A stretch of 64,000 bases of DNA from Leucoraja erinacea (Eukaryota), in NCBI RefSeq assembly GCF_028641065.1, contig NC_073390.1, forward strand, positions 37,696,001 to 37,760,000. Direction: 5' to 3'. Below the pieces are notes generated by a model. The model was not told the DNA's origin. It worked only from the letters and a program-made list of their open reading frames with translations, and ran no database searches. Below, in pieces: positions 986-59,461 of the stretch. A program made the position numbers and the translations under genes. Each line of letters begins with the position of its first letter. Position 1 is the first letter of the stretch.

Positions 986-3900
986 CTAAAGAAAAGGTTT
1001 CATTTAAAAAAAAAATCTGACATTCTATGCTGAATCTCTAAGATTCTACAATGATAAAAGAACCCACGGATGGCTGAAAACAAAATTCAGGTACTCAATA
1101 TGTGCACAATAGCACTTATGTGCCAATGAAATTCCACCAGAAATTCACTCACTTCTGTACAAAATCCGATTCCGAGCCACGTTCAGATTCCTGATCCTCC
1201 ATATTGTGTTCTGCTGCTTGCCGAGGGTTTTCCCGCATAACTGTGGAAGTTAGTTGTGGAGTGTGCAGAACTGCTGGAGTTTGTATGGTATCATTCCTGT
1301 TCAACCATGTGCTATCCACATTCTCTTCTATAAAAACACGCAAAATACATAATATGGCCATTATTACTGCTGTATTCTGTTTCTGATTAATCCTATTCTG
1401 AACTAACACTGAGAAAGCTAATACATCATCATAGGAACTAATTATGTATTAATTCAAGAGGTATTTACTGAGAAGGCATAATTAAAAAATATTTATGGTT
1501 CTTGAAATGTTCTGTTTGCTCTGTACATTATCAACCCATTGAAAGTTGACCCGGAATTTTACAGATGGCTCCAAATACTTTTTTCTTTATTCATTCAAGG
1601 GATGGGAGCTGCTTTCCTAAACCACTGCAGTCCTGGACATATGGATATACCAATGGTCTTAGGGACTTCTAGGATTTTACAGCAATGGCGAAGACATGGC
1701 AATATATTTCCAAGTGTGGCTTGGAGGGCAACATTCAGGTGGTTTATCCATGCTTTCACTACCCATGTCCTTCCAACTGGTAGAAGTTGTGGGTCTGGAA
1801 GGTGCCATCGAAGGAGTTTTAGTGAGTTGCTGCACTGTATCCTGCAGATGGTGCATACTGCTGTTACTGTGCGTCGATGGTGAAGTGATTGAATGGTTGT
1901 GGGTAAGCATGCCTATGCAATGGGCTGCAATGTCTTATATGGTGTAAAACTTCAAGTGTTGCTGATAATCCACACATCCAGGCAAATGGAGATGATTCCA
2001 TCACATTCCTAACTTGAGCCTTGTAAACCTTGGGAAGTGAGAATGTGAGTTACTCACCACAGGATTCCCAAGTTCTGATCTGTTCTTGTAATTTTGTCTC
2101 ATTCACTATGGATACTACCTGACTTGCTGCATATTTGCAGCATTCTCTGCATCCATTTTAATTTGTGAATATTGAGATGAATGATTTCAACACTGATCTT
2201 TGCAGAGAGCTAGAAAAAGTGTTCACTAGTTACCGCTCTCTAACTTTCCATCCTTCAGCCACGTTCCAATTCAATGCTAACATATCAATGTCTGCCTACT
2301 ACCATTTTAAACAAAAATCCCTGTTTAGGATGTCATTCAACATTTTTTGAGCATGTATTCATTTTCTTTTGTAAATTTCTCAAACACAATTCACATCGAG
2401 GCTGATTGAGAGTTTTAATTTTTAAATATTGCTTAGATTAAAATCTCTCAGAATTTCAGGGAAAGCAAGACTAGATTGAAGGTATATGTAGGAAGGAAAT
2501 GCAGATGCTGGTTTACAACGAAGCTGGACACAAAATGTTGGAGTAACACAGCGGGACAGGCAGCATCTCTGGAGAGCCGAAATAGGTGATGTTTCGGGTT
2601 GAGACCCTTCTTCAGAAGGAACGCTGGCCTATCTCAGTTTGGATACTTCTCAGCAAATATTGTCTCTGTTTTACAATAAGCAAATAAATACAATATTTGT
2701 TGCATGTAAAATTAATGCTCATTGATGTTTCAACGTTTTAGGGCTATGCTTGTCAATTGTGCATTGTGTACATAGTTTACAAAAACTGGGAAGTTAATTA
2801 TTTATGTTATTTAGACACAATAAAAACCACAAATGGGATCATTTTCAATCGTGAATAAGTGAAGTTTCTCCATAATTTAAGGGTGGTAATACTAAATGCT
2901 TTTGTTACTTACCTTCAGTTCGCCTCTTGCTGTGAGGAGGACGCCCTTTCTTACTACGTATTGATGAAGTTTTACTGCTGCTACCTGCACTAATCACTGA
3001 CATCCTGTCATCGTCACCTCCAGTAAGCAATGAATTGCGATAGGAGATTAGGGGCAACCAAATATCCTCTCTTCTCTCCATCATTTGTTCAGACATGAAT
3101 TTCTCCAGGTATGCATGCCTGCAGAAACCAAATACATAACTGTATTAACTGAACAGATAACTAAATTGTTTTTGACAATATTACATATCTATTTGCCACA
3201 GAAATACTGTGCAACATGTTTCATCATATGGCCCAGATATTCCTTAAATTAAAACATAATTCTGTTTGTAATAATGTATCTGTGCCTCATCATCCTTAAA
3301 ACAAGACTATTGAACCAAATACATTGGGAGTTCAGAAAATTAGTTAACAATATTTTACTTACACAGTTTTTTTGTCTTGTCGCAGAAGCTTAGATGAGAA
3401 TTCACTCAGAATTTCAAGAAACGCAAGATTTGATGGAGGGTAGTCTGGTCCATTTGGACTTGGATACTTAAAAGCAAATTCTATACCATCCCTGTTGCAA
3501 AATCAGATAAATGTTTTTTAGAGACGTTTGCGTGATCAGTTTTGGAATAACTAAGAAATGAACTAAAACAATTCTTCATGATAAACTGTTGAGGGACATT
3601 TCTGCATATCAACCAATGGCCATTTGCCAAAATATCCTCAGTATAGTTTGGGGCGGGGGGGGACACACTTAAAAAAGTAAAATTCACAATAGTGTGGGTA
3701 GAAATGGAAATTAATTTGGATCTTAAGTTTTAAGCAGTAGAGATTAATACAAGGATATTTTTCTTTTACAAGCTATGGCATATATGCACCAAATAAGATA
3801 TACTGTTAAACTGGAACAGGTAGGGCTCATCGGGAATTAAAGAGTGTTAGTAACAAGGAAAAACTCAAAAAATCAACACCAAGTATAAACCCAATTTCTT

Positions 3901-57258: not shown

Positions 57259-59461
57259 GCCCTTTGTGACCCCACAAAATGGATTGTAGAGAACACTTTA
57301 AAATTGTCTGCCAGGAAATATCCATCCCCATCTTACCTCAACCACATTATGTCATGTAAGCTGTGATTTTAGTCATAGAGCCCATAACAGGCCGAATCTC
57401 AGGATTGCTGCATCACTGATGTAACAATTTTCTCAATCTTTCTGGCTATAATGCTGCGCCTTATTACCCATACGTTTCCTCCTTGATTCAGCAGGACACA
57501 GGAGAAACCGTTTAATTTATGCTACCTCTATGCCAGAGTCACAGTAACCCCCAATTTAGATTGAGCAGTGGTTTTCCAATGACACTTACCTACACTCATG
57601 TCAGGCACTGAGATTCAGATTTTCATGCCCTCAGTCATTCACTGACATATACAATAGACCTCAAATTACCATCAACAAAACAAAGGTTCTCCTGTGCTCC
57701 GCCTGCAAAACATTTTCAATGACAGAATTCTGGAAAATATGGACCAAATTATTGGCGATGATTTCACTATTGCTTTCAGTTTGCTGGCGTAGCCTATGGC
57801 AGTGGGAAGTGAATTTGAAAATCAAAATCAATGACGTAATGTTTGATTCATCAATGTCTTCTCCTCTGCCAAAATCCTGAGCAATGATGTCCTAATTACA
57901 TGGTTTCTGATGGACAATTACATTGTACACATGCCCAACACCCGACCTCCGGAACATGCCCGTTTTTCTGGAATATGCTACTGCAAGAGATTAATTAACA
58001 CGTGGATATTGGAAATTAAATAGAACAAAGGAGAATCTTGTTCATTCATTAGATACAGAAGTCCCGTGTAAAGCATGGAAGGGATGCACTCTTTCCCCAA
58101 CTTTCCTCTTATCTACTATGTAAATCCTGCTTCAATTGTGACAGAGTGTGTGGGCCACACACTAGTCTCAACAATTACCTTTGAACCCACATAATTGTGG
58201 GAGCAAGTCATCCTCAAGCTCGATTGACTGCAAGTCGAAATTGTAATGCAATATCATGAAGTCACATGGGTCTATTCTCTCCAATGTACGTTCCCCAATG
58301 ATCTCTCATGACCAAAAAATTAATGTTACTGACTGAACAAATTATCTGAAATTTAAAATTGAGCATTTTAACTAACATTTAGCTAGATTACATAAATTAA
58401 ACAGACATTTGCTCCTACCAATAAAACAAAATACAGTAGGAACTCAAAAGGTCAGGCAGCATCTGTGGAAGGAATGGATAAAGTTTCGGATTGGGCCAAA
58501 AGTAAACGAAATAATCAACTCAATCACTTATCTACATCTTCAAATACTACTAAAACTGGAATGGATATGTGTAAAATTTTGGGTTGGGGCCTTCTTATTC
58601 TCTTTATTCAAGCTTCCAAACAATCAACTCAACCACTTTCTTCAATTCCCCTAAAACTGTCGTGGACAGATATAATGTCAAAAGGCCCCACATAGAAGAT
58701 CTTCAACCTATTCCCTCCACAGATGCTTCCTGACCTGCTGAATTCCTCCACAACTTCGCTTTTGCTCAAGATTCTAGCATCTGCAGTCTCTTAAGTCTCA
58801 AATTTGCTCCCACCAAGTACAGTAGTCTCTAGGAATATGGTTATTCACAGAATTAGCAAAAAATCACAAAGAAAGCTGTTTGCATTTATAATATCGTTTC
58901 TTTACCAATATCTGTGGCGCTGCCCACTTTGTTGGACAAATCCAAATGAATTTTTACTAACCACTCAAATAAAATTACTCAAATTAACCTATTTTTGTGA
59001 CAAAATACAAAGACTTGTTTGCTCAAAATTTAAAAATTAACCGCAATCGATTTATCCTGATAAACTGTATTCCATCCAGATGTGATCTTCGGAGAAATCC
59101 AAGCTAATCCTGCATAAACTATTTGACAATAGTTACCTCATAAATGTCAAACATTTTTCAGTTAGTCAACTCATCTCTTACACCTGCTACACTACATCAA
59201 CTTGTTTGAAATTTATTTAATTAAACACCGATGTTAAAAAAAAAGCAATTATTCTAAATCCAATTACGGCTTCATGGTTTTTCTTCAATTTAAATCCACC
59301 AACTTTGCACCACATTTAACCCAGGAACATGTAAAGATGCTGGAGTCAATAATCAAAGAATAGCATTGAGAAGCTTTATACAATCAAGCCAAGTCATCAT
59401 GGTTTTACAAAAAATACAAAATAATTTGAATTTGTCAAACTCGTGTGCAAACTCCTGGACC

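Follow-up and report, generated by a model that had tools for sequence, protein, structure and literature searches.

The window analysed here, by which we mean the whole 64,000-nucleotide stretch of Leucoraja erinacea contig NC_073390.1, contains the coding exons of STAG1 (cohesin SA-1) on the minus strand at 874..44611, which are host context for a scattered family of short repeats and not part of it. A profile built from the window's own repeat copies recovers 39 pieces at E ≤ 1, compared to none in the reversed window and 0–1 in three shuffles (best E 0.77). With a longer model, 33 pieces are found at E ≤ 0.05, totalling 2795 bp or approximately 4% of the window. In the Penelope-like reading that we adopt, the repeats represent end-pieces of the element, short and for the most part decayed, each originally with a small self-cutting RNA motif. 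A copy is present at all 14 of the main coordinates given in the original prediction, and five of its six degenerate sites are recovered by the profile, the sixth (27265) being detected by a hammerhead motif scan alone. A single 100–130-bp unit had been described; the copies are real, but many sites instead hold head-to-head inverted pairs, with previously missed arms at 11642, 24867, 31988, 40655, 51699, 55082 and 58707.

Full single units are found at 2486..2615 (minus strand, subfamily A), 9640..9858 (plus, with upstream UTR, a helix II deletion and an upstream edge that is approximate) and 42219..42344 (plus, damaged core). The full tailed unit of subfamily B at 37231..37360 (minus) has its hammerhead core at 37360–37333, with a predicted cut between 37333 and 37332, and forms part of a longer insertion spanning 37231–37845 on the same strand, flanked by a 13-bp target duplication with one mismatch (37216, 37848). 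The short single unit at 49898..49987 (minus) is enclosed by an exact 14-bp duplication (49884–49897, 49988–50001), and a tailed unit at 52635..52739 (minus) lacks the head. More divergent are a plus-strand unit at 27265..27360, a degenerate head at 26867..26922 (minus) with a long pyrimidine-rich stretch upstream, and a small degenerate piece at 55082..55128 (minus). Degenerate copies identified by profile lie at 7144..7247 and 22002..22084 (both minus, the latter without a head) and at 30212..30318, 39346..39458 and 40655..40742 (all plus), the last of these having been overlooked before.

Among the head-to-head pairs, 31767..32109 combines a short minus arm with a plus arm that carries UTR and tail, within an exact 17-bp duplication (31750, 32110). 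Two pairs have no hammerhead: 52914..53056, with a palindromic junction and an exact 14-bp duplication (52900, 53057), and 54329..54456, with a 17-bp duplication containing one mismatch (54312, 54457). An older pair at 58422..58801, with approximately 210 nt between its arms, is flanked by a 15-bp duplication with one mismatch (58407, 58802). The pair at 51597..51781, in which neither arm is tailed, has a possible 11-bp duplication, and for 5185..5408, with two heads bearing core mutations, the flanks match over 8 bp only. The remaining pairs are 11103..11753, where a 468-bp insert (11175–11642) interrupts helix II of the plus-arm head at 11156, the divergent 24763..24959, with its tail on the minus arm, and 45577..45666, with a tailed minus arm and a plus arm consisting of the head only.

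Target duplications of 13–17 bp are thus seen at six insertions, and duplications scoring at least 12 occur at 6 of 23 tested insertions, compared to none of 400 random flank pairs. The other 17 show no clear duplication, as would be expected with age. Neighbouring copies within 600 nt are head-to-head in 9 of 11 cases and never tail-to-tail (P 1.3e-4), and in eight of the nine head-to-head pairs a 30–40-nt tail is present on one arm only. There are two classes of 3′ end, lying roughly 30–40 nt apart. No tandem arrays are present within the window, and no empty-site joint appears among the 15 joints listed, beyond which there are 2473 more.

The identity of the source element is indicated by the long insertion at 37231–37845. 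Lying 85 nt upstream of the repeat unit on the same strand, and running on directly into it, is the 3′ end of a Penelope ORF (37449..37838, minus; stop codon at 37446–37448), which encodes 130 amino acids comprising the last two Cys of a linker zinc finger and a GIY-YIG endonuclease. The interval from stop to hammerhead (37361..37445, minus) is a pyrimidine-rich 3′ UTR, so that endonuclease and stop are followed in turn by UTR, hammerhead, pLTR body and tail. This is a dead copy, with Ser in place of the conserved Gly of YIG, and its match to the Pfam GIY-YIG family (E 0.054) is below the cut-off; homologues give E values of 9e-5 to 0.047. Conserved positions are nonetheless retained (C40, C43, R53/54, H62, H78, E107 and N123), the two Cys lying within the motif. 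The best homologues come from skates, rays and sharks, with 77% identity to a Leucoraja protein, and longer homologues, 53–62% identical within the endonuclease, have a reverse transcriptase (RT) core and a CX4CxxC linker. That linker is found in most aligned homologues, and the window copy keeps its last two Cys, the first having been lost by truncation. In the DNA of other animals, 8 of the 32 loci that offer 150 nt or more of downstream sequence have a minimal hammerhead on the strand of the endonuclease and no more than 700 nt behind it (one of the eight being weak; five of 37 loci were too short), and the read-through C-terminus of a Stegostoma homologue spells the same motif. At these 32 loci there are no opposite-strand motifs, shuffles yield 0.02, and 24 have no motif under the strict pattern.

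The repeat unit is the terminal module (pseudo-LTR, pLTR) of an endonuclease-bearing Penelope-like element, and the clade of that element is probably Neptune. As in the Neptune and Nematis elements described by Craig et al. 2021 (PMC8557442), we see a C-terminal GIY-YIG domain with two Cys in the motif and conserved R, H, E and N, a CX2–5CxxC linker (in the homologues), 5′ truncation, an inverted 5′-end copy and a one-sided tail of 30–40 bp. They differ from those elements in that no window copy has a full ORF, and in that five of the six 13–17-bp duplications are clean and lie in non-microsatellite DNA, the 37233 site alone being TA-rich. Judged from the linker before the endonuclease, the element would fit Neptune or Nematis. 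The window contains no RT-coding remnant and no full element was seen, so the autonomous source is inferred. The ORF from the unit's ATG reads through in some copies but meets a stop in others, and so does not place the element's start codon. An endonuclease profile gave 39 candidates in viral contigs, none of them confirmed.

The consensus head matches the minimal pLTR hammerhead of Cervera & De la Pena 2014 (PMC4209133), with CUGANGA, an extra base before helix II, helix II closed by a G-C pair (G10.1-C11.1), GAAA, a palindromic two-base helix III and UH. A strict core scan of the window yields six matches, compared to 0.2 in shuffles (at most 2 in 100). The term hammerhead-bearing, as originally used, is true of the ancestral unit, but the core is broken or missing in most window copies. 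Only one head in 17 is fully intact: that at 49987 alone combines full core, helix II, palindromic CG and helix I, and it folds into helices I and II, its 4-bp helix I drawing on bases of the target duplication. At 27265 the core is present with a 5-bp helix II showing two compensatory changes, but there is no helix I; heads 2615 and 37360 have CA for CG; and the head is missing at 52635, 52914 and 54329.

Helix II is paired in 88.5% of cells, with two of three tested pairs changed on both sides, although the covariation is modest (score 0.259, matched or exceeded by 5 of 500 shuffles) and related sequences can reach such a score without structure. Helix I in the main subfamily is 2 bp, with 58% of cells paired, which is at the low end of the 2–6 bp given in PMC4209133; helix II here is 4–5 bp. 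Rfam finds no hammerhead over the window, its five matches being chance hairpin look-alikes below threshold, and folding of heads and whole units gives no signal relative to shuffles (z-scores −0.95 to 0.85). We do not claim a 6-bp stem predicted in the pLTR body, since it has only one double-change pair and an unfavourable covariation term. A further match to the motif, on the minus strand at 29157, may be due to chance. The hammerhead of the source element is probably a weak cutter, acting as a dimer or with protein assistance.

As a class, these repeats are already known, and minimal hammerheads in vertebrate Penelope ends have been published (PMC4209133), in a set that includes Neptune, Poseidon and Xena elements of fishes. 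Those motifs, as here, are mostly dispersed singles or lie on opposite strands 100–700 bp apart. The examined part of its supplementary alignment has no chondrichthyan row, and neither ‘shark’ nor ‘Callorhinchus’ occurs in the supplementary file. The same architecture as in the window copies has been described (PMC3846280, PMC8557442). Among the literature matches listed, the top 20–30 of each search, no paper describes the family in skates. An exact 22-nt pattern search of metagenome contigs gave no matches.

Sequencing data point to an abundant family. Summed contig depth is 9.0 million on the unit and declines to 2.8 million and then 1.2 million along the endonuclease, compared to approximately 30 for unique DNA, although depth sums are not copy numbers. 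Head-to-tail joints between units are rare, with 6–16 contigs in each of three DNA runs and a depth of 173–660 against millions on the unit, and such joints are unreliable at low likeness. RNA reads of a relative (one poly(A) run) map to both strands and show a pile-up neither of ends at the predicted cut site, which is a weak test, nor of starts. None of the listed records containing the stretch is entered as RNA, which is uninformative on expression.

We are highly confident that the units stem from abortive retrotransposition of an autonomous Penelope-like element, with a C-terminal GIY-YIG and a Neptune-type linker, located elsewhere in the genome. The original proposal of truncated Penelope-like products is borne out by the linked GIY-YIG coding end, the target duplications and the one-tailed inverted pairs, and is further backed by the same motif behind related endonucleases of other animals; its main reading, a minimal type I hammerhead in several subfamilies of different age, is supported by evidence that the original proposal lacked. 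In the mechanism that we propose, the endonuclease would make two staggered nicks, and RT would start inside the RNA, either at the tail end or 30–40 nt upstream of it. Both DNA ends would often be extended, producing a head-to-head pair, and synthesis would mostly halt within approximately 130 nt, with a minority of copies attaining the UTR or ORF. The hammerhead would be a property of the source element's RNA; as copies continue past the point of cutting, the insertion template is likely uncut RNA. PAc, a Poseidon element of Anolis (Frangieh et al. 2024, PMC11167929), is known to use two internal RT starts and to insert without cutting by its ribozyme. PAc belongs to a different clade, but the window element resembles it in the two internal start sites that define the tail, extension of both strands, uncut RNA as template and the lack of RNA-seq ends at the cut site. 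It differs in priming: PAc is reported to start at a site lacking homology to the DNA that is cut, and here four of five short ends match the target over 3–6 nt. This match, and the clustering of 5′ ends just before the ribozyme core, go beyond what we found in print, and the numbers are small.

That clustering suggests a refinement, rather than a replacement, of abortive retrotransposition, to which we give slightly less than an even chance: most short copies would derive from RNA that starts a few bases before the core, with RT priming 90–130 nt downstream and running off the 5′ end. The pyrimidine-rich UTR is clear at just 4 of 17 heads (27265 is borderline), and for 8 of 17 a partner arm or duplication sets a boundary no more than approximately 20 nt from the core (two of the eight share a 40-nt spacer), giving P 8e-6 if the stop rate of the depth decay is assumed but 0.006–0.05 at stop rates of 1–1.5% per base. 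The bounded heads are, moreover, selected through having a partner, around half of the arms have their start deeper within the unit, and the same accumulation of ends would result if RT stalled on the folded motif. Just ahead of the core, the five most frequent bases (loose-end consensus) resemble an initiator. An Inr-like motif has been reported in rotifer pLTRs (PMC3846280), and PAc products in vitro shorten with the RNA's 5′ end (PMC11167929). A transcript start at this point would also account for the 2-bp helix I; the lack of a start pile-up in the relative's RNA speaks against it.

More tentatively still, skate Penelope RNA may start 2–4 bases before the core, with most of the ~10^5–10^6 genomic stubs being run-off cDNAs from internal priming, in which the primer pairs with 3–6 RNA bases and both ends of a 13–17-bp staggered cut are used. 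If internal priming and run-off are indeed at work, they would amount to an in vivo priming rule for Penelope, unlike the homology-free in vitro start of Poseidon, and the hammerhead with its 2-bp helix I would be a near-vestigial transcript cap. The priming and completion of integration by Penelope-like elements is covered by one in vitro study in the literature consulted. The junctions of the present family record the element's mode of copying, and its abundance and clean duplications make 5′ ends, priming homology and arm pairing measurable on thousands of natural insertions.

We consider it unlikely that a single cDNA folds back and primes itself to form the inverted arm, in place of priming at both DNA ends, with the short target matches contributed by end-joining. 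Self-priming has been proposed for head-to-head Penelope repeats (PMC3846280), and the 52914 pair, with its palindromic junction and 3-nt overlap, would suit it. However, the copy at 49898, a single one, lacks an inverted arm and terminates at the short site, where 4 nt match, short ends are grouped at model positions 86–102 in most pairs, several pairs have 11–211 nt between their arms, and PAc extends both strands in vitro (PMC11167929).

Far less plausible is the earlier alternative of retrozyme-like units, that is, a separate non-autonomous retrozyme- or SINE-like family amplifying via small circular RNAs. The copies are short and fairly uniform in length, and rare head-to-tail joints do occur in all three DNA runs. 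Animal non-LTR retrozymes (Cervera & De la Pena 2020, PMC7229834; Li et al. 2026 preprint) likewise consist of short repeats that are related to Penelope ends and contain a type I hammerhead, and retrozymes are reported to be pLTR-derived and present in one chondrichthyan (bioRxiv 10.64898/2026.07.22.740005). As described there, however, they form head-to-tail arrays of 150–450-bp units with mostly canonical hammerheads, whereas the 130-bp stubs of the window, which have target duplications, stand alone or head-to-head. Head-to-tail tandem units each bearing an intact hammerhead, the retrozyme hallmark, are absent; since there are no such arrays in the window, we do not class the units as retrozymes. 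The hammerhead is of the minimal form and not the canonical type I, copies extend into UTR and ORF, and joint depth is minute beside that of the unit. The Penelope assignment gives a name to a repeat that would otherwise be passed over as an unknown repeat or SINE.

With regard to the host gene, the original placement of all copies in STAG1 introns is partly upheld. The gene is real, with 28 matched stretches running from 39992 to 874 and a start-codon exon at 44611, and none of the 33 repeat pieces overlaps a matched exon, but ‘intronic’ is unproven for copies from 45577 to 61997 because they are upstream of the start codon. It is extremely improbable that some copies are conserved active ribozymes acting on STAG1 pre-mRNA: copies do sit in STAG1 introns and 49987 is oriented sense to the gene and folds, but the copies show no preference for one strand (in the tested span, 10 of 17 are on that of the gene), cores are mostly broken, 49987 is in an upstream region of unproven transcription, single minimal hammerheads are reported without in vitro cutting, and RNA ends do not pile up in the stretch examined, which does not include 49987. 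The scattered copies are decaying relics that are not expected to play a role in STAG1. As a separate observation on annotated genes, the endonuclease end has leaked into skate and ray gene models.

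The dispersed repeat is a real family, as the original prediction held. A profile seeded with copies from the window recovered 39 pieces at E ≤ 1, as compared with none in the reversed window and 0–1 in three shuffled versions. A 131-position model gave 33 pieces at E ≤ 0.05, which together cover 2795 bp (4.4% of the window). The prediction had named 14 main copies, all of which are present, and six degenerate ones; the profile recovered five of these six, and a motif scan the remaining one. Its proposal of several subfamilies of differing age is borne out by sequence identity, which separates a young group (37233, 49898, 52966 and 54385; 86–96% mutual identity) from an older group (76–89%) and from more divergent relics.

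A 130-aa frame at 37838–37449 on the minus strand closes with a stop, and a full unit starts 85 nt further on. The encoded peptide gives a weak match to the Pfam GIY-YIG domain (E 0.054), shows 77% identity to a Leucoraja protein, and spans 47–83% identity across 28 matches; these homologues suggest a skate-like fish as host. Its longer homologues comprise an RT core, a CX4CxxC linker and an endonuclease with two internal cysteines, which is the layout described for the Neptune and Nematis clades in PMC8557442. In a Stegostoma homologue, a read-through peptide matches the translated hammerhead of the window copies. Finally, 37 related loci were taken from metagenome contigs, 32 of them with enough downstream DNA; a minimal hammerhead was found 94–351 nt behind the endonuclease match, on the same strand, in eight of these 32, against 0.02 in shuffles. 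On these lines of sequence evidence, the unit is the pseudo-LTR (pLTR) of a Penelope-like element, so the predicted origin is upheld. This Penelope endonuclease also turns up in seven gene models of skates, rays and sharks that are named after host proteins (receptor-transporting protein, neuromedin-U receptor, mucin-2, kinase domain); these are likely annotation chimeras, with exaptation being possible.

The class is already known, and the family comprises Penelope pLTR stubs of a known kind. Minimal hammerheads in Penelope ends have been reported for fishes, coelacanth, frog and reptiles (PMC4209133), and a 2026 preprint on Penelope-like elements and retrozymes includes one chondrichthyan in its survey (bioRxiv 10.64898/2026.07.22.740005). 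The word ‘Penelope’ is absent from the main text of the little skate genome paper (PMC10115646), and no description of this skate family was found in the literature searched, although Dfam and Repbase, which lay outside that scope, may well hold one.

The unit head matches the minimal hammerhead of PMC4209133 and its supplement in every listed feature, with an extra base before helix II, a G-C closing pair and a palindromic two-base helix III. The description of the units as hammerhead-bearing holds for the ancestral unit, but only one of 17 heads is fully intact. Pairing across 18 heads reaches 88.5% in helix II and 79% overall, compared to 13–46% overall in slid controls; helix I is 58% paired and measures 2 bp in the main subfamily. 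Two of three tested helix II pairs are doubly changed, but the covariation score was equalled by 5 of 500 shuffles, and the apparent covariation is suggestive only. Single minimal hammerheads are reported not to cut and dimers to cut poorly (PMC4209133), while cutting by that of Anolis required the element's protein (PMC11167929). One target duplication (49884–49897), read on the minus strand, opens with the same 7 bases that follow the cut site (49953–49959), and the target therefore provides a 4-bp helix I; the full identity is probably a coincidence atop a 4-nt junction match. A small palindrome spans the start of the hammerhead core in both subfamilies, A and B: at 37361–37369 (minus strand) and in the loose-end consensus, the 4 bases before the central base reverse-complement the first 4 of the core.

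Flank duplications of 13–17 bp with 0–1 mismatch (score of at least 12) were found at six of 23 insertions tested and at none of 400 random pairs, and a seventh insertion shows an 11-bp duplication, a level attained by 2% of controls. Neighbours within 600 nt are arranged head-to-head in nine of 11 cases, tail-to-tail in none and on the same strand in two (P 1.3e-4), the last two not being tandem. In eight of the nine head-to-head pairs a tail is present on one arm, and the other arm ends earlier, mostly at model positions 86–102. This combination of inverted pLTR and one-sided tail is shared with the rotifer Penelope, which has a 31-bp tail and an 8–10-bp duplication (PMC3846280), and also agrees with the Penelope architecture in PMC8557442. 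For Chlamys, de novo insertions have a median of 128 bp (PMC9977147). The original prediction had offered retrozyme-like units as an alternative, which is not supported, because retrozymes are tandem arrays (PMC7229834), unlike the units in the window, and because head-to-tail joints, although present, are rare in the three DNA runs, in all of which head-to-head joints recur. Contigs of these runs mapped onto 31650–38050 gave summed depths, which do not equal copy number, of 8–9 million over the unit, 2.8–3.8 and then 1.2–1.5 million along the endonuclease, and ~30–60 in unique DNA. We take this fall to show no more than that 5' truncation follows a steep gradient; a rough reading of depth and window density gives on the order of 10^5–10^6 pieces per genome.

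At five duplication-defined short ends (ends that lack the tail), the flank continues the element sequence for 4, 4, 3, 6 and 0–1 nt; 200,000 random draws, which averaged 1.8, never gave a summed match of at least 17 nt. One further short end that has no clear duplication gave a 1-nt match, and tail ends were mixed (0–4 nt). With n=5, the matches suggest primer-template pairing, though they could also come from cut-site preference or end-joining. Matches of 3–6 nt at four of five ends differ from PAc, a Poseidon-type Penelope element of Anolis, which is reported to start without homology to its target (PMC11167929). The 5' ends cluster just upstream of the core: the pyrimidine-rich UTR between ORF stop and hammerhead is clear in four of 17 heads, and eight of 17 are bounded within ~20 nt. 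Whether this excess is strong or marginal depends on the stop rate that is assumed (P between 8e-6 and 0.05); the clustering is a lead, and an RNA start just before the core would explain it.

The unit anatomy, duplications, orientation, two end classes and copies extending through the cut site are all seen in the window. We infer that insertion would involve nicks staggered by 13–17 nt and priming at one end or at both, after which synthesis would end early and the two cDNAs would be joined. The two arms share sequence, which calls for either two templates or a fold-back; L1 twin priming differs in this respect. In PAc, reverse transcription starts internally at two sites and both strands are extended, with uncut RNA as template (PMC11167929). 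RNA data came from one poly(A) run of a relative, ~6% of it read, shown to be stranded by STAG1 exon bins. The unit was covered on both strands, by 1174 sense and 1295 antisense reads; antisense was about twice sense along the endonuclease stretch, and neither read starts nor read ends piled up. The pattern is consistent with many copies being passively co-transcribed; this sample is a weak cleavage test and, being poly(A), blind to circular RNA.

A 41-aa exon at 26456–26578 has a slightly higher score against cohesin SA-1 than against SA-2 (77.5 vs 75.7 bits) and is identical to SA-1 proteins of sharks. A shark SA-1 aligns to the minus strand as 28 stretches between 39992 and 874, and the STAG1 start-codon exon lies at 44611. 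None of the 33 pieces in the window overlaps a matched exon, and the copies show no strand bias relative to STAG1 (10 of 17 within 874–39992). The predicted setting in STAG1 introns thus holds as to gene and exon avoidance, but those beyond 44.6 kb lie 5' of the start codon, where a 5' UTR intron is only a possible setting. A CpG-rich patch at 59480–59910 (GC 0.51, CpG observed/expected 0.86, repeated GCGCA words), which precedes the start codon by ~15 kb, is a candidate promoter or another repeat.

Other repeats accompany the family. A long plus-strand LINE ORF2 remnant at 15936–18949, presumably CR1-like, encodes endonuclease and RT domains (Pfam E 8e-16 and 3e-34) in a 779-aa frame and resumes in a second frame up to 18949; shorter 3' pieces lie at 42–615, 41215–41848, 43200–44400 and 45300–46030. 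A second plus-strand LINE at 19413–20837, which we take to be L2-like, has a 474-aa RT frame (Pfam RVT_1 E 5e-35), and two related consecutive pieces at 60072–61137 (plus) hold LINE C-terminal frames (Pfam ALKBH8_N E 2e-13). A SINE-like family, assumed here to be HE1-like, occurs at 9970–10175, 33373–33600 and 43586–43791 with very high depth in the DNA runs. Within helix II of one Penelope stub, a 468-bp single-copy insert (11175–11642) resembles a small DNA transposon, with short terminal inverted repeats that agree at 8 of the first 9 bases.
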